This document shows positions 1-61,012 of a stretch of 61,012 bases of DNA, in pieces. This DNA is from a virus (taxonomy: Duplodnaviria > Caudoviricetes): the IMG/VR virus record IMGVR_UViG_3300025120_000004, positions 1 through 61,012 of that record, one strand, 5' to 3'. The translations under genes and the position numbers were made by a program. Each line of letters starts with the position of its first letter. Positions within the stretch are counted from its first letter, which is position 1. The notes beneath the pieces were generated by a model. The model saw nothing but the letters and a program-made list of their open reading frames with translations. It ran no database searches and was not told where the DNA came from.

Positions 1-127
1 GGACAAAATCAAGTACATCTTTTGAAAGGGCAGGAGTAACGACTATAGATTTTGATCCTATAACAACTGCTTTAAGAGCTACAAGAAATACAGGAATGGA
101 TTATTTTATGAGTAATGAAATATCTAC
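1..127. repeat. Terminal direct repeat copy 1 (assembly circularity overlap)
   Basis: 1-127 is identical to 60886-61012; 127 nt equals a common maximal assembler k-mer and the repeat lies mid-gene. Confidence 0.95.
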
Positions 128-1778
128 TACTAGACAATCGATGGCTTCTTTAAAAAGAATTACAAAAAATGATGATTCTAAAACAGATAAACAGCAAGAC
201 CAATTAAATCAAGCTGTATTAGATTTAAATACAATATATAGCGAGGCTCTAAATAACGTTGTTACAAACAACATGAGTAGTACGGTATTAGGGGGTAAGT
301 GGTGGAATTACTTCAAAACTTTAGGATATTATTCAACGTTAGCATCTGTTCCAAGAGCTGGAGCGGAATACGCATCTAACCTTACTTTTGCTGCACTATC
401 AGCTCCTGGAGAATTTAGTTTAGGTGCGACAGTATACGCAGATCTTTCTTGGAACAACAAAGGAAGGGCTGTTGTTGAAAATGTAGCATCCACGAACAAC
501 ACAAAATTATATTCAGATGAGCAATTAGGTGGTTCAAAAGCAGATTCTCAGGGAGTTACAAAAAAGAAATCTTCTCCTGAAGCTAGAGGCAAGGCAGGTC
601 AAACATTTGAATATGTTGTAAGAAATACAGGAATAAAATATGTTCCAAAAGTAGTATCAAAAATAGGTGAAACATTAGTTACGAAGCCTGACCAAATGAT
701 AGCACGACCTTTGTGGTTTGGTACTTTTGCAAAAACATTTAAAGCGGAAACAGGTTCAAAAGTAGATTTTGATAAAATAGCTGATAATGATTCAGACTAT
801 ATGAACAAGTATAAAGATGCAATTCAAAAAGCAACATCAAAAGCAGACAATAATGTAACTATGGCTGCCACATCAAATGACCCATTTTCTTCGGTGTTAA
901 AAAACCAAGTCCAAGAAGGGGAGAGTGGGATGAATTTCTACAGAATGATAAACGGATATATGTCTAGATTTAGTCTTAATGAATATGCAACTGCTAGACA
1001 AGCGGTAGCCTCAATGACAGGACAAGGACAGTTAGGAGTAGTTAAAGGTGCGTCAACATTAGCAGGAGTTGGAGTCAGAATGTCTATGTATGTAATGCTA
1101 TTAAGATATCTAAACGGAGCAATGTTTGGAATGCTAGGTATTGGAGATGAAGACGATACGGATTATGAAGAATTAGGTATTCGACAAGGCGTAGGAGCTG
1201 TTACATCATTAATTACAAGAGGTGTATCTGGAAACATACCAATGATTCCGATGAACTATGCCATAGAGTCTTTAAATAAAGAGTATGGATATGATATAGG
1301 GTTAAGGTCAAAAGAAGAGTATAATGGTATGGAAGACGCTCTTGTATACGCTACTATAAATCCATCTAATGCTTCAAGAAATTTAGAAGAAGCTACATTG
1401 ATGCAATTGACAGGCCCTTTTAATCCTTACTTCAAAGCAGGATTTAGAGTTGCCAATCTAACAATTAGAGCTTTAAATAATAAAACAGAAGAAAGTAGAC
1501 AAGAAAATCTAAACAAATTATTTTCAAGTAGGACAGGTATTGAAGTAGCCAATCTGATTGGAGGCGTACCTTTTTATAGAGATATAAGAAAAGGATTCTT
1601 GGAAGAAGAATTTAAAGAAGATGATACAACTGTACCTTTTACTTTAGAAGAATTGAAGATTTATGACTCTAAAGAGTACAACATACAAATGAAACAAAAA
1701 AAAGCACCTAAAAGTCGTGACGAGTTAGATATAGAAAGAGAGCTAAAGGCTTTAGAAAAAGAATTAGAAGATTTATAA
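1..1778 (+). CDS. 3' part of giant ~2500-aa internal virion/ejection protein (starts at 55161, crosses the junction)
   Basis: ORF 96..1778 is in the same frame as ATG 55161 after removing the 127-nt overlap; last gene of the structural arm. Confidence 0.8.
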   Translation, partial: TKSSTSFERAGVTTIDFDPITTALRATRNTGMDYFMSNEISTTRQSMASLKRITKNDDSKTDKQQDQLNQAVLDLNTIYSEALNNVVTNNMSSTVLGGKWWNYFKTLGYYSTLASVPRAGAEYASNLTFAALSAPGEFSLGATVYADLSWNNKGRAVVENVASTNNTKLYSDEQLGGSKADSQGVTKKKSSPEARGKAGQTFEYVVRNTGIKYVPKVVSKIGETLVTKPDQMIARPLWFGTFAKTFKAETGSKVDFDKIADNDSDYMNKYKDAIQKATSKADNNVTMAATSNDPFSSVLKNQVQEGESGMNFYRMINGYMSRFSLNEYATARQAVASMTGQGQLGVVKGASTLAGVGVRMSMYVMLLRYLNGAMFGMLGIGDEDDTDYEELGIRQGVGAVTSLITRGVSGNIPMIPMNYAIESLNKEYGYDIGLRSKEEYNGMEDALVYATINPSNASRNLEEATLMQLTGPFNPYFKAGFRVANLTIRALNNKTEESRQENLNKLFSSRTGIEVANLIGGVPFYRDIRKGFLEEEFKEDDTTVPFTLEELKIYDSKEYNIQMKQKKAPKSRDELDIERELKALEKELEDL

Positions 1779-2795
1779 CTAAAATATATGTGTTAGTCTA
1801 GCTACTTGCCCATGGTTTTTAGAATGTACAAAACCTTCGACAGCTTTTACTCCTCCAACTCCATATCCTTTTCGATGATGCCAGGAATCAGATCCACTGG
1901 GTGACCTTAAAGATTCAACTGTAATCCCATGATAATCTTTACTTGATTTGTGATGAACGTGATGTGTATATACATATCTATGTTTTGTCTCTGCCCATTC
2001 TTTTGAAAACTCATTAGCCATTATTAGTGGAAGGTCAGCTAACTTTGCTCCATCTCCATGCGTAGTGCCAATTAAATTTTGTCCATACATAAATCCTTTT
2101 CTGTGAGCAATACTACAATCAAATGTTATATTCTTACATTTTCTAAACCAAGACTGTATAGAATCAGATAACATAAATCCAGACATATAATCGTGATTAC
2201 TGGGATTATATACAAAGTGTACATCAGCAACTGATATGAGTAACTCTAATAAATCTACATAGAGTTTTTTAGCTGTAAGAAAATTTTCATACCACATTCC
2301 ATGCGTGTCTTGTGGTGTTCCAGATGTTGTGGTTCTTTTGGGTGTATCAATATGCAAGATATCGTTACCTCCAATGAAAAGTATTTTGTCTATATTAAAT
2401 CCGTTAGACTTTTGTAGTATGCCTTTAACTCCTTTTAAAACTCTTTTTACTGCAATCTGAGAATCATATTCTTCTCCTGTTTCAAAACTAGAAGCAAGCT
2501 TCCCTATATGTATATCTGCAGGATCAATAACTAAGAGGTGACCTTTTTCAGATTTGCTTCTCTTTATTTTTTTATAAGAAGGCGAATGCTCATTCATTGC
2601 CTTTATAATGTCGTCTCTTAATTCTTCAGGAGATACTCCTTTATTTTTTACGTGAAGTGAAAAGTACTTTCCTTTGTGCCAATAGTGATCCACATCTTTC
2701 ATTGGTATTCCACTAATCTCACATTCTTTTTCTAAAGCTCTGTGTTTCTGAATTAATTCGTATTCGTCTTCGTTTAGTCTAGGTCTAAAACTCAT
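1779..2795 (-). CDS. Calcineurin-like metallophosphoesterase
   Basis: Motifs DIHIG, GNDILH, SNHD, HGD, HHVHH in the expected order. Confidence 0.8.
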   Translation of the reverse strand: MSFRPRLNEDEYELIQKHRALEKECEISGIPMKDVDHYWHKGKYFSLHVKNKGVSPEELRDDIIKAMNEHSPSYKKIKRSKSEKGHLLVIDPADIHIGKLASSFETGEEYDSQIAVKRVLKGVKGILQKSNGFNIDKILFIGGNDILHIDTPKRTTTSGTPQDTHGMWYENFLTAKKLYVDLLELLISVADVHFVYNPSNHDYMSGFMLSDSIQSWFRKCKNITFDCSIAHRKGFMYGQNLIGTTHGDGAKLADLPLIMANEFSKEWAETKHRYVYTHHVHHKSSKDYHGITVESLRSPSGSDSWHHRKGYGVGGVKAVEGFVHSKNHGQVARLTHIF

Positions 2796-2973
2796 CTTCT
2801 GTTAATTTTTGCGTCTCTCGCAAAACAGACTGAAGCTCTTTGATGGTATTATTTAAAGACTCATGGTCTTCATCCATTAACGATTCGTAAATATCGTCGG
2901 TCAGATTGTTGATTTGTTTCATCAACAAATTAATAAAGTTAATTGAGTTTCTACTGTTTTTTTGAATAGACAT
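2785..2973 (-). CDS. Hypothetical protein (62 aa, helical)
   Basis: ORF packed into the minus-strand operon, overlapping the next start. Confidence 0.6.
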   Translation of the reverse strand: MSIQKNSRNSINFINLLMKQINNLTDDIYESLMDEDHESLNNTIKELQSVLRETQKLTEDEF

Positions 2974-3029
2974 TATGAATGGCGTTTACTAAAAATACAA
3001 ATTAAAAGTAATTAATCTATTAAAAGTTA

Positions 3030-3263
3030 TTAACCATCCATATTAACTATTAAATGCTTTCCTATGTTTGAATCTATTTTAGAGATGGCTTTGTATATTT
3101 GTTTAGACATACGTTTTACCTCATCTCTTTCTTTTTTTGTAGACTCACTACCTAAATTTGTGTACATATCACAGTCAATTCTAAACAGTTCATCTAATTT
3201 TTGTTTTATCGTCCAGGTTTTGAACTCAACAATTTTATCTATATTTTCGTAAGTGTATTTCAT
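3030..3263 (-). CDS. Hypothetical protein (77 aa)
   Basis: ORF with A-rich start context in operon. Confidence 0.65.
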   Translation of the reverse strand: MKYTYENIDKIVEFKTWTIKQKLDELFRIDCDMYTNLGSESTKKERDEVKRMSKQIYKAISKIDSNIGKHLIVNMDG

Positions 3264-3283
3264 AATTTATTGTTAAAAACTTT

Positions 3284-3853
3284 TTATCTTAATGATGCTC
3301 TTGCGTCTAAACCTCCACCATTACATATTATTATTTCTGCTTCTTGGTTTTGTTTTTTCCATTTATAACCCTTTATAATTAAAGATGCTCTTTTATCGTA
3401 GTCTTCTTGTTCAGATAATGAAAGCGTTCGGTATTCTTTTTCTATATCAGTTAGCAAGTCATTAGATATTAATCTTTCATTAAGTGATTCTTTATAAGCA
3501 AGAAGCTCATTGTATTTTTGTTTTAAATCCTCATACTGCTGTTCTTTTTTATAATGATCGTCAACTTCATTTTTTAAAACATTCACCTTAAATATATCAT
3601 ACAATCTTGAGAGTCTTTTATTTCTCATTAACTCATCAAATAAATTAGACTTTGCATGTAGCACTGTTGCATGGTCTCTGTTTACCATTTGACCTATTTT
3701 TGATAAAGAAAAATTAGTTGTATCAGTTGCTATTTTAAAGTACAATGTTCTGTAAGAAACTTGTTCTGTATTTCTAGATTTAGTAGATATATCATAACCT
3801 GCACAATCATCTACATATTTTTTAATTACATTTAATTCATTATTTGTTGACAT
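3284..3853 (-). CDS. DnaA C-terminal (domain IV)-like HTH protein with coiled-coil tail
   Basis: SLSKIGQMVNRDHATVLHA resembles the DnaA signature SLxxIGxxFxxRDHTTVxHA. Confidence 0.75.
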   Translation of the reverse strand: MSTNNELNVIKKYVDDCAGYDISTKSRNTEQVSYRTLYFKIATDTTNFSLSKIGQMVNRDHATVLHAKSNLFDELMRNKRLSRLYDIFKVNVLKNEVDDHYKKEQQYEDLKQKYNELLAYKESLNERLISNDLLTDIEKEYRTLSLSEQEDYDKRASLIIKGYKWKKQNQEAEIIICNGGGLDARASLR

Positions 3854-3858
3854 ATTTA

Positions 3859-4170
3859 TTATTGTTTTATATTTAAGTTTAAGTTTATTGAGTCTAAGTA
3901 TTCATCTAGAGTTATCTGATATACATCTACTAGAACTATAGGTCCATCATCTTCTCTATAGTAATCGAATGAAAAGAAAACAGGATTACCTTTATTATCC
4001 ATTACGTTACCAGTCATATTTTTAATAAAACCTTTGGTTGATTCTATACCGTATATTGTATCTATTACTCCTCCTATTTTTTCAGCTGAGCCATTAGTAA
4101 AGTTTCTCATTTGAATAAGGAACATTTCATCTATTTCAAATTCCTCTGTATACTTCTGTTTTACATCCAT
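3859..4170 (-). CDS. Hypothetical protein (103 aa)
   Basis: ORF in operon. Confidence 0.6.
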   Translation of the reverse strand: MDVKQKYTEEFEIDEMFLIQMRNFTNGSAEKIGGVIDTIYGIESTKGFIKNMTGNVMDNKGNPVFFSFDYYREDDGPIVLVDVYQITLDEYLDSINLNLNIKQ

Positions 4171-4378
4171 GTTTTTTTAATTCTTTTAGTCTATATTCTT
4201 GTAAGGCAGACACCCTGCCTCTTGGCTTTTTTACTTCTGAAAAAAGAACTTCACAGTTAGGTGGTATAGCTATAATATCAGGTATACCATTCTTATTAGT
4301 TTTAATCAACTTAATAACATAGTAACCTTCAGCTTCTAACTGATCTATTCGTTTTTTCTGAATTTGTTGTTCGGTCAT
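4136..4378 (-). CDS. VRR-NUC domain nuclease
   Basis: GIPDII...EVKKPRGRVSALQEYR (PD-ExK plus G..S..Q), next to an SNF2 helicase as is usual. Confidence 0.8.
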   Translation of the reverse strand: MTEQQIQKKRIDQLEAEGYYVIKLIKTNKNGIPDIIAIPPNCEVLFSEVKKPRGRVSALQEYRLKELKKHGCKTEVYRGI

Positions 4379-4491
4379 TAATGTTCTGATTCAGGCTTCC
4401 CACAATTTATACACCATCTTGCCTCACCAACGTGATTGTCATAAGTATAAAACATTTCGCACTTAACAGTTTCTTTTTCTTGTTCTTTCAT
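4378..4491 (-). CDS. Small putative zinc-binding protein (37 aa)
   Basis: Own translation MKEQEKETVKCEMFYTYDNHVGEARWCINCGKPESEH; fills the gap, stop overlaps next ATG. Confidence 0.5.
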   Translation of the reverse strand: MKEQEKETVKCEMFYTYDNHVGEARWCINCGKPESEH

Positions 4492-4496
4492 TATTT

Positions 4497-5735
4497 TTAA
4501 TTTAAAGTTAATAAATCTTTTTTAAAATGCTTTAATGTATAATCTTTCTTTTTGCTTACTGCCTTATATATTTTAGACTCTATACCTCCGTTTGTAAATA
4601 TCCAGAAGATTTCGTTTTCTGGCCTGTCTTTAGTGGTCATTCTATCTCGACTCTGCCAATAACTAGTGGCACTAAAATCAATGTTGTAATATACTAAAAA
4701 TTTAGCTTTCCTCAGGCTAATACCTTCTCGCCCACTTACAATTTGTAAAGCTATAGATTTGTCTGTTTCATTGAAAGTATCTAAATCTGTACATAAATAA
4801 TCTCCATATACTTTTTTAAGAGCATTCAATTCTTCTTTGAATTTATAGAAGATTCCTATTTTGTTTGAACAAAAATTATCATATATATACTGAGCTTTAA
4901 ATGTATCAAGAACCATAGAGTTGCCGCTTTCAAACTTAACTGTTCCACTATACATTTGATGTAGCTTCTGCATTAATTTAACAGACGTATCTGCAAGTAT
5001 TACATCATTCTTTCCCTCAACTACTAAATCTTTTGTAAGCTTCTTACAAAGCCTTAAAACAGATTCTGGGGCATCTACGTTAAGTACTGTTTCTTTTATA
5101 GAAGATTCAAAACCTGCTTCTTTTTGGGTGTAAGAAATCATATAAGGATTCATCTTGTCTAGTATAGACTGCCTGCCATGAGAATAGTCATTTACCATAA
5201 ATGATCCAATGCGTTTTGTTTTAGACACAACATAGTCTCTAGCAAATTTATAGAAGTTTGTATATTCTCTAAATGGATTGCTAGGTATTGAATATATTTG
5301 ATGATATATTTGACTAAATGATTCAGGAGTAGGAGTTCCTGATAGCAATATAACATAGGGGTTGTTTTTTATAACAAACTCTTTTACTTGCTTAGCTCTT
5401 TTGCTAGGCTTTGGAAAAGCACCCATGCTATGAGCTTCATCACATACTATTGCATCCCAACTAGATATGTCTACCTTGTGTAAGGATTCATAGTTTATTA
5501 CATATATTTCGTAACCTGGATTTAAAAGCTCGTAGTCTTTCTCAATACTACTAATAGCTTTCTTCTTTGTGATGAACAACACTTTGTTCACACTCATCAT
5601 TTTATTTAAAATTCCTAAAGAGGTTAGTGTCTTTCCTGTTCTAACCTCCATAGATAGATATACAAATCGTTTCGATTGTAGTATCTCAAATCCTTTTTCA
5701 ATAATTCTGCTTTGATAATCTCTAAATTTAACCAT
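4497..5735 (-). CDS. SF2 SNF2-like helicase
   Basis: MEVRTGKT (Walker A), DEAH, LSGTP, GREGISL, QSRDR. Confidence 0.85.
   Translation of the reverse strand: MVKFRDYQSRIIEKGFEILQSKRFVYLSMEVRTGKTLTSLGILNKMMSVNKVLFITKKKAISSIEKDYELLNPGYEIYVINYESLHKVDISSWDAIVCDEAHSMGAFPKPSKRAKQVKEFVIKNNPYVILLSGTPTPESFSQIYHQIYSIPSNPFREYTNFYKFARDYVVSKTKRIGSFMVNDYSHGRQSILDKMNPYMISYTQKEAGFESSIKETVLNVDAPESVLRLCKKLTKDLVVEGKNDVILADTSVKLMQKLHQMYSGTVKFESGNSMVLDTFKAQYIYDNFCSNKIGIFYKFKEELNALKKVYGDYLCTDLDTFNETDKSIALQIVSGREGISLRKAKFLVYYNIDFSATSYWQSRDRMTTKDRPENEIFWIFTNGGIESKIYKAVSKKKDYTLKHFKKDLLTLN
5585..5604 (+). repeat. Dispersed motif copy (TGTTCACACTCATCATTTTA)
   Basis: Exact reverse complement of 13126-13145. Confidence 0.85.
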
Positions 5736-6000
5736 ACGTTTCTCTTAAATATTTATATACTTTAGGTAAATTTTCTGTTGCTTGTTTTTGATTTTTATAG
5801 GTTACTGAACCAAGTGTTACACTGCTATATATTACAATGTTTTTTTCTTTACAATATTTTGATGATTTCCCATCTGTAGAAATACCTCCTTTGCGAATGG
5901 CAATATTACACTGGCCACTGTTGTTAAGCATTTTTATATAAACTTGAAAATCATTATCAATACACCATTTAAAATCAGAATACCAATTGATCTCCATCAT
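5728..6000 (-). CDS. Hypothetical protein (90 aa)
   Basis: ORF overlapping both neighbours in operon. Confidence 0.6.
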   Translation of the reverse strand: MMEINWYSDFKWCIDNDFQVYIKMLNNSGQCNIAIRKGGISTDGKSSKYCKEKNIVIYSSVTLGSVTYKNQKQATENLPKVYKYLRETYG

Positions 6001-8401
6001 TATATTCTTTGTTTTTATTTGTTACAAATACTATCCACCTACCATTTAGGTCTCTTCCGTCTTTCGGTTTTGTTTCCGTCTTAAACAAAGCAAACGAATT
6101 TAGCCAACGATAAAACTCTGTTCTAGATATAGTACGTTTTGCTTTAGGTGCAAAGTCAGGATTGTCAGCTATGAATTCTAAATACAATTCATTCTTGTAT
6201 ATCTTTTCATTGAACCTTATACTTTCGTTTTTGTAATCATCATCAAACAGCCCACACCATTCAACAAACTCGTGACAGGTATCTGCTGATAAGTGTCTAA
6301 CAGTTTGGTTCTTGAAGTCTCCTTTTATTAATCCCTTTGATAAGTAGAACATAAGATTCTCAACCATATAGTTGTCAAAGGAACACCACTCTTGTTCATC
6401 CCATTCTGAAAACAATAGCTTACCAAATTCAACAAGTGGAGTAAAGTCTTTGGTATAGAACTGCGAGAACTCAAGTTCCCACTTCCTACGCTCAAAGGAA
6501 TTACCTCTACCCTTTATAGCATAGTTAGTTGTAATAGCTACCTTTGGTGACTTACTGAAAGGAATCTTTATAGCATCCTTGTTTTTCTTTTCTAATGTAA
6601 GCCCTTCGGTTACAACACTAAACAATCTTTCAAAGTCAAAATGTTTCTTTACATCATCAAAGCATAGTACCTGAGTGTCAGCACTTACTAATTGATAAGC
6701 AAAACTTTTCTCAAAATTAAAAGACTTACCATCAATAGTAACGAGCTTCTTCATTTGTGATAGTGCATTCATAAACAAACCCTTACCTGTTCCACCCTCT
6801 GGATTCTCTGATATTACCTCATCATTTAATATTATTGCAGGACAATAAGATAAATTCTTATAAGCATGAAGCATATAACCAATTGTACTACGCATTGATA
6901 ATATTGTTTGCTTGTTTCCTCCTGATATGTTATTTATAAATGTTTTGTAGTCGCAATCAAACGAATCACATAAGTCAAAGTCACGATCAATAACCTGGTC
7001 TTTCCAAACATAACCACCCAAGTCAAGATAATCAATAGTTGTTTTCTTGTCCTTTGTAACTTTTACTGCACAATTTCTATAGTATAAGTACGCACTATCT
7101 TTATCATCTTCTATAAAGTATACATCTACTGTACCTAGTAATGATAAGAACTCTTCCCTAAAGAATCTAGTCTTATCAGCAAAGTAATTATATACAGACA
7201 TATCATCAAGGTCCTCAAGATATCCTAAGATAAAATCTTTTATCTCCTCCTCATTAGTATGGTCAATAAGATTGTTTGTTACTCTAACAAATATAAAATG
7301 TTTACTACCCTCTGGACAGAACTTATAAAACCCATGGTCTTCTAAGAACTGTCTAAATAAGTAATGTATTATTGTTATAACCCCTTTGTCATTTTTATTC
7401 CAAAATCTTTTCTCGCTCTCATCTTCTTCAATGGAAGTAATAACAGAATCAATTACAGCGTCTTCAATTTGGGTTTCAGATAACTGAAGACGAATCTCTT
7501 TTTTTGACACACCTCTTTTAAGTTTCATTCTAACCTGATTTACCTTGTCTTCATCTTCATAATACTTTGAACCAAAGTTTTGTTTTTGTGAGTAGGCTGA
7601 ATTAATAGTGGTCTTTATCTCACTAATTTTAAAGTCACTGCTTTCAAACTGAGACATAATATATTCTGCCAATGACTTGCTTACTCCATAGTCATTGAAT
7701 GCTGCTGCCAATATGTATATGTTATTGTTTCTTTCTCCATCAATAATCCCATACTTCTTAGTCCACCACTTCATAAGAATATCTACTATCTTATTCTCAT
7801 CAGTAACAGGTATAGTTGGTCTAGAAGAATATTTATCTACAACCTTATACTCTTGTTCTTCTATCTTATCCCACAAAAAAGAATTCTTATTTATATATAT
7901 CAATGGATCGTATGATTCATAACATACTCTTGATACATTCTTACTAGTCTTATCAAAGTAGCTTGAATTAAAATACTTTTCTAATGACATAAAGTAATTC
8001 TTATGATTGTTTGGTTCTTTAGGTATCTTAACTAAAGCCTTAAGTCCGTTTCCACTTGGAGATATAAATACTGAATATGTGTATCTATCTTTTGATAGTC
8101 GTTCTTTTTCAGACATCATATCTTTCTTGGTTTTATAACCATCAAAGTCCAGGCATATAAACCCACTGTGTACAGTTATACTATCATCTGCTCTCTTGTT
8201 AAACATTCCTGAGAAACAAATAGCAGGTAGGCTTTTCTTTAAACCCTGCCTAATCTCTTTGTCTTTCTCAGAACGTATTTGCTTTATAAGCTCTTTAGAT
8301 GTTCCATCTTTTATTCTATCTAATATTGATTGTATATCTCTAAAGAATGGAGTAGATGTATCTTTTATATTTCTAAATATAGTAACTTGATTTTCATCCA
8401 T
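5975..8401 (-). CDS. Primase-helicase: BT4734/VirE-N-like AEP domain, PriCT-like domain, SF3-type helicase
   Basis: LPAICFSG.F, SGFICLDFD, SPSGNGLK, SYDP; GERNN; GGTGKG, FDD, ITTN. Confidence 0.85.
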   Translation of the reverse strand: MDENQVTIFRNIKDTSTPFFRDIQSILDRIKDGTSKELIKQIRSEKDKEIRQGLKKSLPAICFSGMFNKRADDSITVHSGFICLDFDGYKTKKDMMSEKERLSKDRYTYSVFISPSGNGLKALVKIPKEPNNHKNYFMSLEKYFNSSYFDKTSKNVSRVCYESYDPLIYINKNSFLWDKIEEQEYKVVDKYSSRPTIPVTDENKIVDILMKWWTKKYGIIDGERNNNIYILAAAFNDYGVSKSLAEYIMSQFESSDFKISEIKTTINSAYSQKQNFGSKYYEDEDKVNQVRMKLKRGVSKKEIRLQLSETQIEDAVIDSVITSIEEDESEKRFWNKNDKGVITIIHYLFRQFLEDHGFYKFCPEGSKHFIFVRVTNNLIDHTNEEEIKDFILGYLEDLDDMSVYNYFADKTRFFREEFLSLLGTVDVYFIEDDKDSAYLYYRNCAVKVTKDKKTTIDYLDLGGYVWKDQVIDRDFDLCDSFDCDYKTFINNISGGNKQTILSMRSTIGYMLHAYKNLSYCPAIILNDEVISENPEGGTGKGLFMNALSQMKKLVTIDGKSFNFEKSFAYQLVSADTQVLCFDDVKKHFDFERLFSVVTEGLTLEKKNKDAIKIPFSKSPKVAITTNYAIKGRGNSFERRKWELEFSQFYTKDFTPLVEFGKLLFSEWDEQEWCSFDNYMVENLMFYLSKGLIKGDFKNQTVRHLSADTCHEFVEWCGLFDDDYKNESIRFNEKIYKNELYLEFIADNPDFAPKAKRTISRTEFYRWLNSFALFKTETKPKDGRDLNGRWIVFVTNKNKEYNDGDQLVF

Positions 8402-8495
8402 GTCGATTTTATTTGTATATATATACTTTATATAATTATAATTAATTTAATTTTAGTTTGCCATATCTAAGGAAAATAATTGACATTTTCGACAT
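8400..8495. promoter_or_regulatory. ATGTCG/AT-tract element over the primase start (copy of origin-like element)
   Basis: ATGTCGATTTTATTTGTATATATATA matches the reverse complement of ~20289-20314 at 25/26; paired GACAT sites at 8481-8495. Confidence 0.6.
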
Positions 8496-8504
8496 AGATA
8501 AGGT

Positions 8505-8530
8505 AAAAGAAAAGGGGTTTTTACACCCCT
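8505..8530 (-). terminator. Intrinsic terminator after ssb
   Basis: Minus strand AGGGGT-gtaaaa-ACCCCT followed by TTTCTTTT. Confidence 0.7.
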
Positions 8531-8550
8531 AATCTTAGCAACACAAACTT

Positions 8551-8814
8551 TTAAAATGGTAAATCAGCTTGTTTTTCAGCCTGAACTTTAGTTACTTCTT
8601 CCTTTTTCTTAGGAACAAAAGTGTCAAGTTCAATGTATGGCTTTCCTCCCTTGCTGTTTAGCACGTTTAGGTTTACCCATCCATTCTTTTGATTGTTAGT
8701 TAAAAACGTAATAGCATCTTCAACCTTTACGCTGATGTTACCAATTACGAACTCTGGTGCGTTCTCTCTTCTCTTGAAAAGAAATCCGTCTGCAAATACT
8801 TTGTCTTGTGACAT
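8551..8814 (-). CDS. ssb: Single-stranded DNA-binding protein (87 aa, start MSQDK)
   Basis: C-terminal DLPF tail; position between recombination genes and primase; ATG 8814 has A/T-rich context. Confidence 0.65.
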   Translation of the reverse strand: MSQDKVFADGFLFKRRENAPEFVIGNISVKVEDAITFLTNNQKNGWVNLNVLNSKGGKPYIELDTFVPKKKEEVTKVQAEKQADLPF

Positions 8815-8870
8815 AATAATAGTATTAATGTTGAGCGATGAGTTGGAGCATCGCATCTGACTCCTTTACT

Positions 8871-9608
8871 TTAAAACTGTTCGTACTCAATGTACTGTGT
8901 GATGTCCTCTGCTGAATCTTCTGCAAAGAATTTATTATATACTTCAATAGCTTTTAAAACCTTATCTCTACCCCTTAATATTGTTTCAGGAGAAGGCTTT
9001 GCTATCTTTAACTTAAGAGTTGTCTTATCTATTATATAAAACTCTACAGGCTTACCAAACAACTGTTCGTAAACGTAGGCTTGACTATCATAATTATAAT
9101 CATTGGCACTCCATTTAAACTTGTCAACATTACCAGTTGTCTTTATATCTATAACTCTTGTCTGAGTAATTATATCAGCTTTTCCTTTCCAATCTACACC
9201 AAACATATTAGTTACAGCAGGTTTCTCATATACATTTCCTTCTGCATATATATCTGTATACATTACAAAGTTTGACTTCATAGCATCAACCCAAGTGTTG
9301 ATCTTTTCTACTTCTTTTGTAAGCAAGACATCATAAGGATGAAGGTCATTGTCTTTTATATACTCTTTAAAACCTTTGGTTGCTCTACTAGATACATCCA
9401 TTACAGAGTATTCTTTCAGCTTATGTGGCTCTAACATAGCTGTATGAAAATACCCACCCTCTATTAGGGCTAGGCTTTTCTCTTTCTTTCTAAAATTTCT
9501 AGGGTTTTTTAGTAAGCTATAAATATCTGAGTTAGATAAGTATTGCTGACCAACTTTACCATAGTAATTACTATCGTCTTTGAGTTGTTCAATTATATTA
9601 TTTTGCAT
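8871..9608 (-). CDS. RecE/exonuclease VIII-like PD-(D/E)XK nuclease
   Basis: YLSNS, G..FHTAMLEP, KGKAD, IDIKTT, YDSQAYVY; adjacent to an SSAP. Confidence 0.75.
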   Translation of the reverse strand: MQNNIIEQLKDDSNYYGKVGQQYLSNSDIYSLLKNPRNFRKKEKSLALIEGGYFHTAMLEPHKLKEYSVMDVSSRATKGFKEYIKDNDLHPYDVLLTKEVEKINTWVDAMKSNFVMYTDIYAEGNVYEKPAVTNMFGVDWKGKADIITQTRVIDIKTTGNVDKFKWSANDYNYDSQAYVYEQLFGKPVEFYIIDKTTLKLKIAKPSPETILRGRDKVLKAIEVYNKFFAEDSAEDITQYIEYEQF

Positions 9609-10194
9609 ACGTAGAAAGTTCTTTTTTAATTGCAGCAGTCAATGTAAACTTCTGCTCTACTTTAGATATGGTAGATGCAAATGTTTCATTCTTGTTAGCC
9701 TTTACAAAATTAACTACATCATTCCACTTATCGTGTGTCTTTTTTAGTGTAGTCTTTTTAACTGAAGCAGATACTTTTCTAGGAGCAGTCTCACTTATAT
9801 CAGCAAGGTCTTCACCTGCCCATAAAGATAACCCTAATCCATGCATAGCAATAGCTTTAACTGTACTACGCTGTATAGTTTTATTTACTGCAAATGAAGT
9901 AATCTTATCAATAGATAATGATTGGTTGTTGTGGCCCATAATAGGCAGATAATCTATATGCTCTGTACCACCTATAGTAATACCTACTTTTACATAAGCA
10001 GTAGATCCATCACTAAAGTAATTAAGACCTGTGTGTTCTGATTCATATACAGTCCTGTTTGAATCAGGGTACTTGTCTTTTACTATAGCCCAGGCGTATG
10101 CCCAAGATAAGTAATCAAACCTTCCTTTCTTTTCTACTTTGTCCTTTACATTGATTGATGTAAGTTCCTTAAATGTTGATTTTGTGTTTCCCAT
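9598..10194 (-). CDS. Sak3/DUF1071-like single-strand annealing protein
   Basis: YLSWAYAW, VNKTIQR..VKAIAMHGLGLSLWAGEDL. Confidence 0.8.
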   Translation of the reverse strand: MGNTKSTFKELTSINVKDKVEKKGRFDYLSWAYAWAIVKDKYPDSNRTVYESEHTGLNYFSDGSTAYVKVGITIGGTEHIDYLPIMGHNNQSLSIDKITSFAVNKTIQRSTVKAIAMHGLGLSLWAGEDLADISETAPRKVSASVKKTTLKKTHDKWNDVVNFVKANKNETFASTISKVEQKFTLTAAIKKELSTYAK

Positions 10195-10195
10195 T

Positions 10196-10591
10196 TTAAT
10201 TTAATTTAGATATTTGTGTGTATTTATTAATTAGATTTTCTCTTTTTATTTTTAAAGAATCATAGTGCTTTTTATTATTCCTTGTATTGATTTCATTCTT
10301 TATCTTTTTATTTAAGATTGAAATCTTGTCCTTGTAGTTTCCCATTTTTGTAAGGTGAACTCCTTTTATAAAACCGTTATCATACAGAAACTGATATTCA
10401 TCTTCAGTTAATTCTTTGTATGCATATCTTTGTATTCCTGCATTGTATATTTTAATATTATTATTTACATTACAAATCTTAATACCCTTATAAATATATG
10501 ATAACTCTGTCTTATAACTTAAGTTAGTGCATTTTCTACTGGTAGATGCTTCATCCCATAAATCTTTGAGACTATGCATTGTTAATTGCAT
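10196..10591 (-). CDS. Hypothetical protein (131 aa)
   Basis: ORF in operon. Confidence 0.6.
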   Translation of the reverse strand: MQLTMHSLKDLWDEASTSRKCTNLSYKTELSYIYKGIKICNVNNNIKIYNAGIQRYAYKELTEDEYQFLYDNGFIKGVHLTKMGNYKDKISILNKKIKNEINTRNNKKHYDSLKIKRENLINKYTQISKLN

Positions 10592-10862
10592 CTTTTATAA
10601 AAGACTTAACATCAGAATCAGGTGAAGATTGTATCTTTTCTATCCCATATTCTACACCTTGTCTAGCTATATTGTAGCCATTATCAGCCATAAGATCTAC
10701 TATCTGAACTATAGTCATAGGTCTTTGGTAGCATACAGCATACAATAAAAATCTTGCTGTAGAATATTTTGATGACCTGTCTTTTTTAAATAATAAGTCT
10801 CTTGATACACCTGTTTCTGAACAGATATAATCAACGTATCGATTAAATATTCCTCTCTTCAT
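10572..10862 (-). CDS. Second DnaA-C-like small DNA-binding protein
   Basis: ICSETGVSRDLLFKKDRSSKYSTARFLLYAVC resembles the DnaA domain IV start (V...fgv....l.s..R......aR...mYl). Confidence 0.5.
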   Translation of the reverse strand: MKRGIFNRYVDYICSETGVSRDLLFKKDRSSKYSTARFLLYAVCYQRPMTIVQIVDLMADNGYNIARQGVEYGIEKIQSSPDSDVKSFIKDAINNA

Positions 10863-11058
10863 TGGATTTAGTTTTATTTAAGTTAAATTTATCTTCTTCA
10901 CCGAATATTTGTGAAAATGTTACAAATATTTCGTTAAGTATTAGTCGCTGTTTATTAGCGTGGTATTGAGACGACTGGTATGTGTCGTCTAAAAATTCTC
11001 TTAAAGTTTCTGATTGTTGTTCACGCTCTCGGTTGAACATTTCTCTTGATTTTCCCAT
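10843..11058 (-). CDS. Hypothetical protein (71 aa)
   Basis: ORF downstream of a minus-strand promoter box. Confidence 0.6.
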   Translation of the reverse strand: MGKSREMFNREREQQSETLREFLDDTYQSSQYHANKQRLILNEIFVTFSQIFGEEDKFNLNKTKSNEERNI

Positions 11059-11083
11059 GATAATTAAATTAGATTGTGTTTTG

Positions 11084-11091
11084 CAAATATA
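11084..11091 (-). promoter_or_regulatory. Bacteroidota -7 promoter box (TATATTTG)
   Basis: Intergenic TAnnTTTG about 25 nt upstream of ATG 11058. Confidence 0.6.
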
Positions 11092-11106
11092 ATATTTATT
11101 TATTTA

Positions 11107-12150: not shown

Positions 12151-12158
12151 CTTATTAT

Positions 12159-12458
12159 TTATTGATTAATTTTTTCAAGCTCTTCGATTGCTTCTTCGTA
12201 TGTATCAAAGAATTGTTCGTCACCTGTATCGTAATCAGTCACAAGATAATCAACTGACTGGTTAAAACAAGAACAAATTGAAACTCCGTTTTCTAAAGCT
12301 ATATAAACATAGCCTGAACTAGTATTGAAGCCTGTCCCTCCATACATTATGTATTTGTCACTTGAAGGAATGTTTTCGTATGCGTCAATTACTTTGTGCA
12401 TTGAGGCAATATCTGAACTGCCCATTTCGTCTAAATTAAAATTGATTGTGTTTTCCAT
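12159..12458 (-). CDS. Hypothetical early protein (99 aa)
   Basis: ORF in operon. Confidence 0.65.
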   Translation of the reverse strand: MENTINFNLDEMGSSDIASMHKVIDAYENIPSSDKYIMYGGTGFNTSSGYVYIALENGVSICSCFNQSVDYLVTDYDTGDEQFFDTYEEAIEELEKINQ

Positions 12459-12476
12459 TTATTTATTTATTTATAT

Positions 12477-12746
12477 TTAACATGCGGCCCATCCAATGAA
12501 TACATAGTGCGTATCTGTCTCATAATACACGCACTCTCTCTTGTCTACTCTGTCTAATGCTTCGTCATAAGCATCGTCATCTTTAGGCTCGGATATCTTA
12601 CCCTCTAATGAACAGGTGGCAATAGTACCACTGTACGGATCGTGTCCGTACTCGTACTGTGCATCTTCTCTTAGTTCTTGATACGCATCTCTTGCTGATT
12701 TGTATTGCTTCTTACTCGCTGTGTAATGAATGTTTGTTGCTCCCAT
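12477..12746 (-). CDS. Hypothetical early protein (89 aa)
   Basis: ORF in operon; EYGHDPYSGTI and FIGWAAC ends. Confidence 0.65.
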   Translation of the reverse strand: MGATNIHYTASKKQYKSARDAYQELREDAQYEYGHDPYSGTIATCSLEGKISEPKDDDAYDEALDRVDKRECVYYETDTHYVFIGWAAC

Positions 12747-12749
12747 AAT

Positions 12750-12947: not shown

Positions 12948-12959
12948 TTTTATTTATTA

Positions 12960-13100: not shown

Positions 13101-13101
13101 C

Positions 13102-13138
13102 AAAAAAAGACTCACTTCATTTTTTTAAAATGATGAGT
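13102..13138 (-). terminator. Candidate terminator overlapping the dispersed motif
   Basis: Minus strand ACTCA-TCATTTT-aaa-AAAATGA-ag-TGAGT-C-T7. Confidence 0.45.
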
Positions 13139-13162
13139 GTGAACACCATCACCTAAAGCTCT
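13126..13162. repeat. Dispersed motif / 30-nt direct repeat copy
   Basis: 13133-13162 vs 17500-17529 identical at 27/30. Confidence 0.85.
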
Positions 13163-13497
13163 GCTGAAAATTGACATTCTCCGTTTTCTTTTACATGGTC
13201 TAGTATTTTCTTGCCTAAACAATAGTCAGCATAGTTGCTCATCTGTTCACTTGTGATACCTGCGTCTTTTTGTTCTTGTGTACTCCAAGTATCTCTGTCT
13301 TTAAAGAACTCATTGACTACCTCCCAGTCTTTCTTTAGTAAATCCAACTGCTCTTTTATTGTAGGCAGGTGGTCTTCATCAAAGTAATAGTCTAAATAAT
13401 TGTTGTAACCAGCGGATCCAAATCTATCTGCTGCGTCACTTGATTGTACTGCAAACATAAACTTGCCGCTTATGTCTCCATCATAATATCTTCCCAT
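13153..13497 (-). CDS. Hypothetical early protein (114 aa)
   Basis: ORF MGRYYDGDISGKFMFAVQSS. Confidence 0.7.
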   Translation of the reverse strand: MGRYYDGDISGKFMFAVQSSDAADRFGSAGYNNYLDYYFDEDHLPTIKEQLDLLKKDWEVVNEFFKDRDTWSTQEQKDAGITSEQMSNYADYCLGKKILDHVKENGECQFSAEL

Positions 13498-13515
13498 AAT
13501 TTCTATTTATTTATA

Positions 13516-13752: not shown

Positions 13753-13770
13753 AGTTTATAATTTATTAAG

Positions 13771-13890: not shown

Positions 13891-13893
13891 AGT

Positions 13894-17493: not shown

Positions 17494-17529
17494 AAAATTA
17501 TGAGTGTGAACACCACTCCCTAAAGCTCT
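17494..17529. repeat. Dispersed motif / 30-nt direct repeat copy
   Basis: AAAATTATGAGTGTGAACACCACTCCCTAAAGCTCT. Confidence 0.85.
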
Positions 17530-17741
17530 TGTAAACAATTTAATTCGTTCATCTCTCGCTTTATTGCGTTCTCTAATCTTCTTCTCTTGTAGATTTCTTT
17601 TGCTTCAGTCCAGGTGCATTGGATCTCGTGCATTATGTCTGTGATAACTTCTCCAAACATTTTCTCTTTTCTCTTTTCTCTTGCAGAGATTAACGCACCA
17701 AGCTCTCCCACTTTTATGCGTATTCTTTTACGTTTTCCCAT
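17520..17741 (-). CDS. Hypothetical basic protein (73 aa)
   Basis: ORF in operon. Confidence 0.6.
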   Translation of the reverse strand: MGKRKRIRIKVGELGALISAREKRKEKMFGEVITDIMHEIQCTWTEAKEIYKRRRLENAIKREMNELNCLQEL

Positions 17742-58100: not shown

Positions 58101-61012
58101 ATAACTCAGAGAGCTGTAGACAACTTTAGTATAATGGATGTAGATGAAAAGTTAGAATATACAGACTTAAATAAACAAGATTTAAAAACCGATAAAAAAC
58201 AAGACGATGCCATTCAAAAGCCAAGCACAGAGGAGCAAGTGTTACAAGATGATGCAGGAAGCGAAAAAGAGGGGGGAGACTCCCAAGTGGAACTGCGACA
58301 AGTGGGAGAAGGAGACATTGAGTCAGACACTACCCAAACGAAAGAAGAAGAAAGTGAAACGCAAACCGATACAACTAGCGACACGACTACGCAGACAGAT
58401 ACTGAACAGTTAGTAACTGAAGAGACATATACGCTACCTGAAACAGAAAAGGGGAGGGAAGAAGACTTTGAGATTATAGACAATCGACAAGGTAAAGCGG
58501 ATCTAGAAATATTTGAGGATGGTGAAGGAAAATGGTATGTTGAAAACAAAAAAACAGGTAGAACTGTCGCACTTAGAACAAAGGCTCAGGCTAAGGCTGA
58601 AGTAAAAAACCCAACTTATGATTATGGTGAGGGAGATGTTATTCAGGTAACTCAAGAAACAACTAAATCAACACCTTCCCCCACAGTAGACACATCCACT
58701 GATGAGGAAGTGATGAGTGTGAACAATAAGATTGAGTCATTTGCAAATCGTATTGTTGAAGGAGGAAATCAAGAATCTTTTTCAGATGATGCAATTCAGT
58801 TTTATGCCGAAAATAGAGAAGCAATTGATAAAGCCGTTGCTCAAAAGAAAAAGAATATTCCTAAAGATAAGTCACGAGAAAGAACTTTAGCTATCAAAAT
58901 TGCTAGAGGAGATACAGAGTTCAGTAATGCAGATATAGATTTATACGCAGGTTCTGAAGCTGATGTTCAAGCTGAGGTAGAAGCTATTGCTAAAACAAAT
59001 AGTCAAACCGTAACAGCCGACACATACAAAGCCATATTAGCTTCAACAAAAAGCACTACCAATAAAGATATGGCAAAGCCTGAAACGGAAAATGCACAAA
59101 GAAAAAGATTTTGGAAATCGTGGAATCAATCTGCTAAAGAAAAGAAAATGGACTTGAAGCAGAAAAGAAAAAGTCTAAATGATGGTATAAAAGCCTATGC
59201 AAAAAAGAGAAAAGGTAAAATTACTGTTCCTCAACTTAGAGCTGTTTTAAACAAAATAAATAATGAAAAATTCAATTTAGATAATCCTGCTGCTGTCAAA
59301 GAAATTCAGCAGTATGTAGAAAAAGTTTTTTCTGATGCAGATTTTGCAAATGATATTGATATAGCAAACAAACTAAAAACAAGAGCTACTAAAAAACTAA
59401 ACTCAGGGAAACTAGGAGATAACGGAAACTTAAATGGAGCTGTGTCTCAAATAATTTTAGCTCCTGTAACTGATTTAACTCCTTCTCAACTAAAATCATA
59501 CAATGAGTTTTTACAAAAAATAGCTAAACGAGACAAAAAAACAAAATTAGATAGAGAGTTAATTCAAGAAGCAAATGATTTACTTAACTCTATAACTCCT
59601 AAGGCAGAAACTGAACAGGCGCTAGCTAAAATTGAAAAGCAAAAAGAAAGTGATAAAAAAGTAGTAAATAAAATTCTTAACCCAGAGGTAAGTGGAGAAA
59701 CTATTATAGAAGAAAACTCTGATTTCATTCAAAATAAATTAGATGCTTTAGACTCTGGCACATTAGAAATTCTTGTTGATAAAGTAAATGCAGCAGAAAA
59801 CGAAAGCAACTCAGAGCTTGTTCAAGAGTTAAATGATTATGCAGAGAATAGACAAAAGCTTATAAATAACACTACTAAAAAGTCTAGAAACGTAAACTTA
59901 AATAACCTAAGCAAAATTTCTTTAGAACAAAGTGTTGGCCCTAGAACTTTAAAAGGTTTAAATAAAGGTCAGTTAGCGATGCTTACAGGAACAGAGCTTT
60001 CTCAGCTAGATGTTTATTTAGATAATATGTCTGAAGGTTTTTATACTCATTTCACAAATAATATAGCTCAAAAAGTAGCTGCTAATGATAGGTCTGTTAA
60101 TATGAAACCTATTTTAGATAAAATGTTTACAGTAAAAGGTAAGTTTTCTACCATGAGACAGTATGCAGCTGCTAGTGTAAAAAATGAATTAGGAAAGGTT
60201 GGCTTTGGTTCTTCAAAAGCGGCTAGACAGATAGGTATTAGAGGTCAAATGATTAGGTCTAACCCACTAAGTGTCATGGATCAAATGTTTGGGAACTATA
60301 AAAACAATACTATATATGAAAATGCTATACGACCTACTGCACAAGCGCACGCTAGATTTAAAAATTGGATTAACGGACAGACTGATACTATTGATACAAT
60401 AGAGTCTTTAATAGCACCTAGTAGAACAGAAGGTATAAATCAATCGGTAAAAAGAAGATTTGAATTAACGACATACTTGCTACAATTAGAATATGAATCT
60501 AACCCAAACAAAAGGGGAACTAACCCAGCTATAAAGTTTATAGAAGATACTATAGACAGATATAATTCTGATAAAAGAGGTAGTAAGTATAATGAAAATA
60601 GTATAGCTATACTTAAGAAAATAGCAAAACAGTACAGTCAGAATGGGCAAATATCTCTCAAAAAGATGGATGATGCTATGTCTACAAAAACTAAAAAAGC
60701 ATTAAAACTATTACAAGGCATTTATTCAGGTTTAGGAGAGCTTCAATCTTATGCAACTAGAATTGTTAGAGGTAATGAACTTGACTTAGTAAATAATTAT
60801 GTTCATCATAAAGCGGATTTTAAAGGTGAAGAAATAGACGATGCTAATTTTCAAAACGCAATAAGTTTTTTAAGTTTGAAGCCAGGGACAAAATCAAGTA
60901 CATCTTTTGAAAGGGCAGGAGTAACGACTATAGATTTTGATCCTATAACAACTGCTTTAAGAGCTACAAGAAATACAGGAATGGATTATTTTATGAGTAA
61001 TGAAATATCTAC
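55161..61012 (+). CDS. 5' part of giant ~2500-aa internal virion/ejection protein
   Basis: ATG overlaps the previous TAA; MEELYNALVEQGKYTKSFEDF...; no closed ORF in the track implies the frame stays open to the window end; continues to 1778. Confidence 0.8.
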   Translation, partial: MEELYNALVEQGKYTKSFEDFKVQFGEPEKTKLLYDALNSSGDYTKSFEDFTYQFGFAEKKNQVVTPSTSEEVVTESTTEITQPTIPGSSDSSENIPDVQIENNVEIKEDLEVTDIPEQKYSNELFDELTSQVQIAQQINTEQNKRNFYKNKAESSFVRRKPKPKKKNPDALLEIDNDLKEKILSDFNIRKSIEYGIVSETDVDNALKGDINLINKLKEISVKNPKEYKKLLSEKRLDKTYAFEETSELNEYQVNQDEESRSLDLKKKIEAYDLETQRLLAENPNATEQEINELVYRPNDPNTYTDEEFEIYENMDYSPTGFEDSNIHKMYDSEKLKSIEGFNVKDFDGYLKEQGYMDRYVELLDDETISEDGRYQDYSGNYNPTLAAERLKAQYLTNYINNQVERNVEFQVLDYQLKNKGRHPSLDGVEISFNTGVDDIAMASYIEEQFPTLTAKLKNQDVENQENYQRYLDGDNPWFTQSVKQGWRSVEDRLHSSSKGVYGFIGMNSVADEIRMRDAQDDLERDDFMRYAYTSGKKSFYNGREYGIDERGQIFDLEIKKNVTNVLTDTMADAIRKKVAGSSETFKSFSGSGTVIATTGIAADMLLQISLTRGVGNLGRGGAAFLGSFDKGKKVVSGLSSIPMKATTASAMIAQGTLFSTNLASSTYDQAIANGLDQATAIELRQKAGMQGFGLGSLTAPISTQTLAMNKIFGKKGTEKLSRGLVDAYQKAGDKGFAAYIQRVKGTIIQNYPSYLKEGGKEIFQENVQQAGQAFVIAENVNEIAQKEIMNNTITGAEYTNTTILAGLAGLLMPFGGDLKSATSKSIKANFSPGEAAIDRLEALHGLSKDVDKTKEFLNSMVTKGVYTEEQVSNLLSDIDLYVNTINSIPTNLSPETSLFVMQSINDIQKQEELKKKRDKSFHPEIDEKIQELRNEITTRTQFDYVNAQGKLRLKDQAAKELTREAEERGEKNFTIDDGAITQRAVDNFSIMDVDEKLEYTDLNKQDLKTDKKQDDAIQKPSTEEQVLQDDAGSEKEGGDSQVELRQVGEGDIESDTTQTKEEESETQTDTTSDTTTQTDTEQLVTEETYTLPETEKGREEDFEIIDNRQGKADLEIFEDGEGKWYVENKKTGRTVALRTKAQAKAEVKNPTYDYGEGDVIQVTQETTKSTPSPTVDTSTDEEVMSVNNKIESFANRIVEGGNQESFSDDAIQFYAENREAIDKAVAQKKKNIPKDKSRERTLAIKIARGDTEFSNADIDLYAGSEADVQAEVEAIAKTNSQTVTADTYKAILASTKSTTNKDMAKPETENAQRKRFWKSWNQSAKEKKMDLKQKRKSLNDGIKAYAKKRKGKITVPQLRAVLNKINNEKFNLDNPAAVKEIQQYVEKVFSDADFANDIDIANKLKTRATKKLNSGKLGDNGNLNGAVSQIILAPVTDLTPSQLKSYNEFLQKIAKRDKKTKLDRELIQEANDLLNSITPKAETEQALAKIEKQKESDKKVVNKILNPEVSGETIIEENSDFIQNKLDALDSGTLEILVDKVNAAENESNSELVQELNDYAENRQKLINNTTKKSRNVNLNNLSKISLEQSVGPRTLKGLNKGQLAMLTGTELSQLDVYLDNMSEGFYTHFTNNIAQKVAANDRSVNMKPILDKMFTVKGKFSTMRQYAAASVKNELGKVGFGSSKAARQIGIRGQMIRSNPLSVMDQMFGNYKNNTIYENAIRPTAQAHARFKNWINGQTDTIDTIESLIAPSRTEGINQSVKRRFELTTYLLQLEYESNPNKRGTNPAIKFIEDTIDRYNSDKRGSKYNENSIAILKKIAKQYSQNGQISLKKMDDAMSTKTKKALKLLQGIYSGLGELQSYATRIVRGNELDLVNNYVHHKADFKGEEIDDANFQNAISFLSLKPGTKSSTSFERAGVTTIDFDPITTALRATRNTGMDYFMSNEIS
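58207..58413 (+). CDS. Overprinted small basic protein (MPFKSQAQR...) in +1 frame of the giant gene
   Basis: A-rich start context, protein-like sequence, local codon anomaly in the host frame. Confidence 0.55.
   Translation: MPFKSQAQRSKCYKMMQEAKKRGETPKWNCDKWEKETLSQTLPKRKKKKVKRKPIQLATRLRRQILNS
58707..58726 (+). repeat. Dispersed motif copy (GAAGTGATGAGTGTGAACAA)
   Basis: 58711-58725 is identical to 13131-13145. Confidence 0.75.
60886..61012. repeat. Terminal direct repeat copy 2
   Basis: Identical to 1-127. Confidence 0.95.

Follow-up and report, generated by a model that had tools for sequence, protein, structure and literature searches.

Why would a phage genome keep one short word both inside two protein-coding genes, where it reads with the mRNA, and in two gaps between genes, where it reads against it? 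The question is raised by a virus of the Caudoviricetes (Duplodnaviria), IMG/VR record IMGVR_UViG_3300025120_000004, whose full 61,012 nucleotides are referred to here as the window. The 19-mer AAAATGATGAGTGTGAACA occurs at four places in the window, and its core 13-mer, ATGAGTGTGAACA, is present in all four (Table 1). As the comparisons below indicate, this motif is real and conserved; it is an as yet undescribed cis-element of a phage family, and selection acts on its nucleotides. Full-text literature searches for the word and its complement returned only unrelated primers and genes.

Four copies of one word

The original prediction, made from the letters of the window, had described a four-place motif with both intergenic copies antisense to the early transcript and with the helicase and giant-protein copies sense and encoding MSVN. 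Coordinates, mismatch counts, strands, and gene contexts all proved to be as described, and chance was ruled out by shuffling, in which matches to the 19-mer averaged 0.09 and none of 100 shuffles reached four. A k-mer scan of the whole genome found just two families of non-low-complexity 13-mers with at least four copies, the motif and the promoter-like TTTTTGTATCTTTGC. Among Markov-1 simulated genomes, any comparable 13-mer reached four or more copies in 2 of 200, and any exact 20-mer repeat arose in 3 of 100. The copies stand singly, 4-41 kb apart. An exact 20-base inverted match joins 5585-5604 to 13126-13145, one 15-mer is common to three copies, and the copies at 13127 and 17494 share a block of ~42 bases that includes the upstream stop codon. 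The latter copy precedes an ATG at 17460 by 34 bases. The helicase copy is carried by an ORF of SNF2/ResIII type (4497..5735, - strand, 412 aa), in which the copy has an imperfect inverted partner 6 bases downstream, in the VLFI codons.

Table 1. Positions in the window of the motif copies, of one site lacking the motif, and of associated features
Feature	Position	Strand	Description
Helicase-gene copy	5585..5603	-	0 mismatches; sense; codons 45-50 K M M S V N, directly past Walker A
Intergenic copy	13127..13145	+	0 mismatches; antisense to early - strand transcript; 7 bases past TAG of ORF 13153..13497
Intergenic copy	17494..17512	+	1 mismatch; antisense to early transcript; 7 bases past TAG of ORF 17520..17741
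Giant-gene copy	58707..58725	+	2/19 mismatches, core exact; sense; codon ~1185, E-V-M-S-V-N
Empty site	8857..8870	-	14-base junction between the 245-aa PDDEXK exonuclease gene and the next ORF; no motif here in the window
Hairpin	13101..13140	-	motif 5' half with upstream partner (13110-13123 with 13127-13140), then seven T; terminator-like
Candidate binder A	3284..3853	-	189 aa; DnaA domain IV helix-turn-helix; putative binding
Candidate binder B	10572..10862	-	96-aa paralogue of A, from an iterated profile started from A; putative binding

Conservation at the nucleotide level

The relatives used for comparison are 80 IMG/VR loci with helicase identities of 60-100%, kept from 127 confirmed among 140 candidate stretches. 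In these relatives ATGAGTGTGAACA recurs in the sense orientation in the helicase and giant genes and in the antisense orientation at one to three early-cluster sites. A synonymous-site comparison of the helicases revealed that all 20 distinct sequences with MSVN use ATG AGT GTG AAC; conserved residues nearby (L40, G41, L53, F54, and I55) are each written with two to four codons. Helicases below ~76% identity have unrelated peptides at the motif position, such as KIKNIN and ELGYEN. For the giant gene, the mean pairwise identity of the 13-mer over 28 distinct contexts is 0.94, compared with 0.33-0.46 for each neighboring 13-base window. The invariant MSVN codons together with the retained intergenic copies indicate a selected nucleotide element rather than a by-product of coding, and they bear out the earlier view that none of the annotated genes explains the motif. 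That the copies have no function of their own, as chance repeats or by-products of coding for MSVN, is extremely improbable. Each copy is short, and the two coding copies share frame 0, with only one other sense frame free of stops, but the idea is contradicted by the nulls, the synonymous invariance, the lack of MSVN in distant helicases, and the conserved intergenic copies.

Copy number and placement are also shared. At up to one mismatch, 4-5 copies were counted in each of five relatives rated 91-100% complete, with 1, 0, 0, 0, and 0 for the backwards control; in one of them, G001, two of the five copies are a single site repeated at both record ends. In these relatives every copy falls within the stretch that runs from the 3' half of the giant gene to the early cluster. 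Early-cluster intergenic copies lie 2-7 bases past the preceding stop and 16-67 (or ~186) bases before the next start. The 13127 copy has an orthologue in L001, L031, L032, L048, and others. At the exonuclease junction, which is empty in the window, many relatives have an insert of ~22 bases with the motif (for example, G001 at 22493 and G002 at 19236). In IMG/VR a 16-mer form matched 99 stretches, with several on one ~60-kb contig. A host origin of the sequence was considered and rejected, the 16-mer occurring singly in at least 120 stretches of unrelated bacteria and archaea with no taxon prominent.

Several copies touch the ends of reading frames. In L012, L025, L028, L050, and L051 the complement of the word lies at the 5' end of a possibly coding ORF of 124-140 aa, whose counterpart in the window is a 10-codon remnant and a gap of ~200 bases. 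An unusually long noncoding stretch of the window (12948-13126, ~180 bases) has a second small hairpin and T run at 13051-13039 on the - strand; at the matching site in relatives the 124-140-aa ORF, with a conserved TATVYHAVEGQTD, follows the motif, and the stretch looks like a lost gene. A 128-aa Cys-rich ORF starts with the word in L067, L077, L079, and L080, and the giant ORF of L067 starts with a copy that has one mismatch. Translation initiation as the general role of the motif was rejected all the same. L065 and a small ORF of G001 carry the word in frame 1; frame 2 is closed by TGA, so that a 5/7 share in frame 0 is not significant. The ATGs of the intergenic copies open unconserved ORFs of 6-48 codons. 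Recoding or read-through of the upstream stop codons was rejected as well: the frames after TAG read VMVFTLIILKK and GVVFTLIIFIRILLI before the next stop, and in relatives the word follows TAA or TAG in other frames. No paralogy was found between the two ORFs upstream of the intergenic copies.

The giant-gene copy marks a border within its protein. A variable N-terminal part (830-1,780 aa) and an acidic, Thr-rich linker precede the copy, and a conserved C-terminal part of ~1,200-1,330 aa starts at MSVN. The linker codons directly before the ATG are purine-rich and resemble a Shine-Dalgarno sequence (for example, GAGGAAGTG), and an internal translation start at this copy is conceivable.

Motif anatomy and the pairing of copies

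The wider consensus is K-ATGAGTGTGAACA-A, with the information contained within ~15 bases. Among 110 contexts, base -1 is G or T in 101 and base 14 is A in 78, G9, A10, and A11 are invariant (letters that were required for context selection), and variation is concentrated at positions 4-6 and 12. Such a distribution gives a two-block pattern typical of protein sites. The site would consist of two parts, ATGA and (T)GTGAACA(A), separated by one or two tolerant positions. The reading that we favor, still tentatively and short of calling it probable, is that the motif represents an asymmetric double-stranded DNA site for a phage-encoded sequence-specific protein, with one half of DnaA-box type.

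A different explanation starts from the strands of the copies. The early intergenic copies carry the complement in their transcript, and the helicase and giant mRNAs carry the sense word, with transcription taken from gene direction. Complements in the early polycistronic mRNA, just past stop codons, might thus pair with the sense copies and bring about translation repression or cleavage, which we consider unlikely. To the fuller form of this proposal we give no more credence: a network in which the complements would pair with start-codon or in-gene copies (helicase, giant ejection-type protein, and others) and so time replication and virion-protein synthesis. Such a constraint with multiple RNA partners would explain 13 frozen bases across phages whose proteins are only ~60% identical. 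The start-codon position of the word in the 128-aa ORFs and in the giant ORF of L067 would suit it, as would a sense copy in G001 located 13 bases before the ATG of a late gene and a within-genome identity of copies of up to 20-21 bases. The flanks provide further support. In a permutation test on 18 genomes with 32 antisense copies, the flanks of antisense copies fit the helicase copy of their own genome better than others, with a mean contiguous extension of 3.09 versus 2.10 bases (p = 0.0008). Base -1 and one core change co-vary among the copies of a genome. In the G001 lineage, a G-to-T change at position 5 is found in two intergenic copies as well as in the helicase copy.

The core variants are difficult to reconcile with strict pairing. 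G001 holds three of them, AGT in the giant gene and at a late intergenic site, ATT between genes of the early cluster, and ATA in the helicase gene and a small ORF, which would leave a central mismatch in every sense/antisense pair. The variants are mostly transversions that are not wobble-compatible, and position 12 changes alone in the L002, L003, and L005 group, with no change in the partner. The helicase and giant copies lie 140 and ~3,550 bases, respectively, from their start codons, and the complement also occurs in the probable coding 5' ends described above, so that the element is not tied to one RNA sense. Because the central differences in G001 are uncompensated, they argue against a strict RNA duplex and fit a protein site of two blocks. 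Of the two alternatives in the original prediction, the asymmetric DNA site is thus the better fit, and the RNA guide and target system is weakened by these same mismatches. No Rfam family was matched, and a tRNA scan was likewise empty.

Local folding was also assessed. Over 40 flank classes, motif contexts fold somewhat better than contexts with shuffled flanks (mean z of -1.36), and 8.4 core bases are paired versus 7.2. A single conserved hairpin was rejected as the conserved unit, since the core finds different partners from site to site, in many cases a neighboring G+C hairpin.

A candidate protein partner

For an asymmetric DNA site, the window offers two possible readers. On the other strand, motif bases 6-14 read TTGTTCACA, which has two mismatches to TTATCCACA, at positions 3 and 5. 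According to PMC4285127, known DnaA boxes deviate from TTATCCACA by at most two mismatches, and the boxes of M. tuberculosis (TTGTCCACA) and H. pylori (TCATTCACA) show single departures at the same positions as in TTGTTCACA. The 9-mer TTGTTCACA falls within this limit of two; the two intergenic copies of the window have C at base 14 and read GTGTTCACA, with three mismatches. Protein A, whose gene is 650 bases from the helicase gene, matches Pfam Bac_DnaA_C with an E of 2.1e-9 (37.7 bits, cut-off 31.5) and DnaA domain IV chains in the PDB (3pvp, E 5e-4; 1j1v, E 4e-3). An iterated profile recovered A and its shorter paralogue B in nearly all relatives, and B matches Bac_DnaA_C below threshold (E 0.021). 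The putative recognition helix of B reads R-x-x-(I/V)-(E/D/Q)-(Y/N)-G in the motif-bearing clade and Y-E-x-V-R-x-(G/S) in the motif-free sister clade L035-L044. We regard A and B as potential readers of the motif, a lead rather than a result.

The putative protein would bind its site as a monomer. With 4-5 single sites occupied, in the replication and early module and in the giant late gene, replication complexes or genome-organizing complexes could be set up; alternatively, the occupied sites could modulate the transcription that passes through them. Shared flanks and variants within a genome, together with the lineage-specific turnover of repeats described below, are expected for fast-evolving pairs of protein and site.

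A number of observations weigh against a DnaA-type reader. Neither the phyletic distribution of the candidates nor the comparison of helices ties them clearly to the motif. The recognition helix of A is nearly the same in motif-bearing and motif-free clades, and the motif-free L035-L044 have no excess of 9-mers resembling DnaA boxes (0.43 per 10 kb versus 1.25 for the reversed control). The helix of B tracks the motif only within the close clade: it differs among the distant L067 and L079, which share the motif, and is nearly the same in L063 and L070 despite their different repeats. The copies are dispersed singly, with no cluster beside an AT-rich unwinding element as in an origin. The CTCAT beside the 9-mer is equally conserved and is left unexplained by DnaA-type recognition. 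Finally, orientation is biased around the primase gene in a manner that an orientation-free site does not predict, with 6/7 independent sites upstream of the gene antisense to transcription and 7/7 sites downstream or in the late operon sense; purine loading of coding strands explains part of this bias.

Among other genes, the best correlate of the motif is a repair-type exonuclease of 338 aa, found at 36/50 loci with the motif versus 1/30 without. It was rejected as the motif partner because it is missing from several motif-bearing lineages.

Other repeats in sister lineages and transcription signals

Where relatives lack the motif, the same module contains other repeats, specific to each lineage. 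Most of these are perfect palindromes of 14-20 bases, with single copies within the helicase or giant genes. Examples are GAGTCTCTTCGAAGAGACTC in L060 (3 copies), AGAGTTCAAACTCT with flanks in L068 (about 7 copies, one in the giant gene), CCGTGTCTTTAAAGACACGG in L070 (6 copies), and GCTCGTTGACGAGC in L074 (7 copies, one in the giant gene); L059 and L063 have non-palindromic words. Such turnover suggests a fast-evolving trans factor and its sites, and it could equally reflect pairs of promoter and polymerase.

The latter possibility belongs to a further reading, in which the motif would be a directional signal of the early cluster (promoter, pause, terminator, or antiterminator) used by an unrecognized phage polymerase or by the RNA polymerase of the host together with a phage factor, the in-gene copies being secondary. 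A different word in each lineage resembles the co-evolution of polymerase and promoter; in the distant L059, L063, and L068 these words stand 15-35 bases before start codons, and the early-cluster intergenic copies of the motif all have the same direction relative to transcription, just past a stop. We nevertheless judge this reading quite unlikely. The head of the early cluster already has matches to host-type promoters, at the exonuclease junction the next ATG follows the word after just ~16 bases, and the helicase, giant, and other coding copies point against their genes and would fire antisense. No phage RNA polymerase or sigma factor was detected by Pfam and PHROGs among the ORFs scanned or by motif patterns in the giant and other large proteins, a search that a very divergent enzyme could escape. 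An intrinsic terminator, as suggested by the hairpin in Table 1, was rejected in particular: among the copies only the one at 13127 combines a hairpin with a run of seven T, and the T run is missing in the near-identical L001 and in other classes, so that the terminator form is not conserved.

Motif borders and DNA transactions

A last reading treats the motif as a place where DNA itself is processed: recombination and the exchange of modules might have a hotspot or boundary there, the DNA might be nicked or broken at a specific site, or replication might receive a polar signal. At one and the same gene junction, some genomes have the motif cassette and others lack it, duplicated blocks occur (the ~42 bases with the motif in the window and 18 bases in G001), and the similarity of giant genes between relatives stops ~2-21 bases from the copy. 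The phage also encodes a Sak-type annealing protein, a PDDEXK exonuclease, a VRR-NUC nuclease, and a repair-type exonuclease. Contigs of relatives end 5-27 bases beyond a helicase or giant copy in 5/89 cases, where ~0.2 would be expected. Regarding polarity, 13/14 independent sites are directed from the primase gene to the convergent gene junction.

We find this reading distinctly improbable. The polarity pattern was chosen post hoc (rough p of 0.03-0.17). Since the similarity of giant genes ends at the motif, strain variation can break assemblies there, and such variation beside the motif probably explains the contig ends. Sequencing-run evidence consists of assembled contigs from 24 runs. 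Public contigs of X1 and X2 span the helicase copy unbroken, and both intergenic copies lie within a single unbroken X1 contig (X1 records 2 and 3; X2 record 20); no joints or loose ends were seen at copies among the run-contig rows listed. The RNA-library contigs (X17) are short, and of those listed none spans a copy, from which no conclusion follows. The copies occur on both strands, at odds with the strict one-strand rule of T5-type nicks, and no recombinase was found in the scans. An invertible segment was rejected because of this lack of a recombinase and the reference orientation in which the X1 and X2 contigs bridge the helicase copy. The probability that remains is left for readings other than those listed here.

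The contigs that end by a copy are those of L006, L019, L034, and L045 (also L066), and L045 spans exactly from copy to copy.

Genome layout

The ends of the record are identical (window 1-127 = 60886-61012), so that the assembly closes into a circle of ~60,885 bp. The giant ORF (55161.., + strand) continues across the junction via 3..1778 to a total of 2,500 aa. All genes from 1779 to 19213 are on the - strand and form the early and replication cluster. By Pfam and PHROGs scans they encode a repair-type exonuclease, the DnaA-domain-IV protein, a VRR-NUC nuclease, the SNF2/ResIII helicase, a BT4734-type primase with a P4/D5-type NTPase, the PDDEXK exonuclease, and the Sak annealing protein; the cluster also holds a C5 methylase, a GGACT/amidotransferase protein, and many small ORFs. 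From 19858 onward the genes are on the + strand (chaperonin, terminase, portal, virion proteins, and the giant protein).

A promoter pattern of -33 TTTG and -7 TAnnTTTG, which we take to be the Bacteroidota consensus, has 16 matches versus 7.7 expected, one of which (19231-19199) heads the early cluster, and we infer a Bacteroidota host. The sequence TTTTTGTATCTTTGC recurs five times, at 20330, 22037, 22671, 43598, and 51826 of the window; these repeats suggest host-polymerase promoters of the late region, with a -7 box of what we presume to be the TAnnTTTG type. The divergent region that separates the early from the late cluster contains an iteron-like array of ~eight AAGG(G)TG(Y) units with very AT-rich flanks (19499-19560), a plausible origin or regulator array and separate from the motif.

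Other features of the genome merit a brief description. A GroEL-type chaperonin is encoded at 20369-21940 (Cpn60_TCP1, E 2e-56), and the uncultured relative MW202828.1 is additionally annotated with a co-chaperonin. A single protein encoded at 13894-14898 joins a class-II amidotransferase-like region to a GGACT (gamma-glutamyl cyclotransferase-like) domain; its gene is ~1.7 kb from the C5 cytosine methylase gene (11107-12150), with several small ORFs between, and the two proteins may perform DNA-modification chemistry. At 8840-8870, the start codon and Shine-Dalgarno-like GGAG of a 101-aa ORF (8551..8856) lie within a small GGAG...CTCC hairpin that is kept among relatives with variable loops and may be a translational control element.

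The phage belongs to a family of ~60-kb uncultured marine podovirus-like phages. No cultured relative was found in the phage collection, and the closest record is an uncultured podovirus genome of 60,850 bp with a helicase identity of 61%. Two isolate-type sets of sequencing runs (organisms A and B) suggest that there may be a culturable system.

Significance and comparison with known systems

Annotation of metagenomic phages leans almost wholly on protein homology, and cis-elements such as this motif are overlooked. In this whole family of abundant marine phages, the proteins that carry the 13-base word are less strongly constrained than the word itself, which provides a concrete and cheap handle on the regulator or replication initiator of the family. 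The different words of the sister lineages constitute a natural series for studying how protein and site, or RNA and RNA, specificities co-evolve. Should the RNA network prove true, a giant virion protein would be controlled by regulators located in mRNA 3' ends, an unusual arrangement.

DnaA boxes are read by a monomeric helix-turn-helix, in either orientation and inside or outside genes. The motif resembles them in that its asymmetric 9-mer, TTGTTCACA, is within the two mismatches given in PMC4285127, and a gene of DnaA-domain-IV type is nearby. In contrast to DnaA boxes, the conserved word here extends over 13-14 bases with five extra invariant letters, its copies are single and kilobases apart, and the candidate proteins, 96-189 aa long, have no AAA+ domain.

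Other replication initiators supply a second comparison. Lambda O binds within its own gene, and SPP1 G38P binds at two distant sites, one of them in the late region. Like theirs, the sites described here would be those of a replication-module protein, embedded in coding sequence and with one far off in the late region. Their sites, however, are repeat clusters at one or two loci, as opposed to 4-5 single copies and a separate array at 19499-19560. Short complementary sequences repeated within one phage also characterize the antisense RNA immunity systems of P4 (CI RNA) and P1/P7 (c4 RNA), in which regulator and targets are on early transcripts. The case at hand differs in its uncompensated central variants and in targets deep inside long genes.

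Phages of T5 type have site-specific single-strand interruptions on one strand only, and the motif likewise has a handful of fixed, sequence-specific sites per genome; unlike the T5 nicks, its copies are on both strands. Finally, phages of T4 type have mobile regulatory cassettes composed of a promoter plus a stem-loop. The resemblance lies in short repeats at early gene junctions that are present or absent at orthologous junctions and linked to module shuffling. Compared with these cassettes, the word of the marine phages is shorter, has no recognizable promoter, and is kept inside two conserved genes as well.

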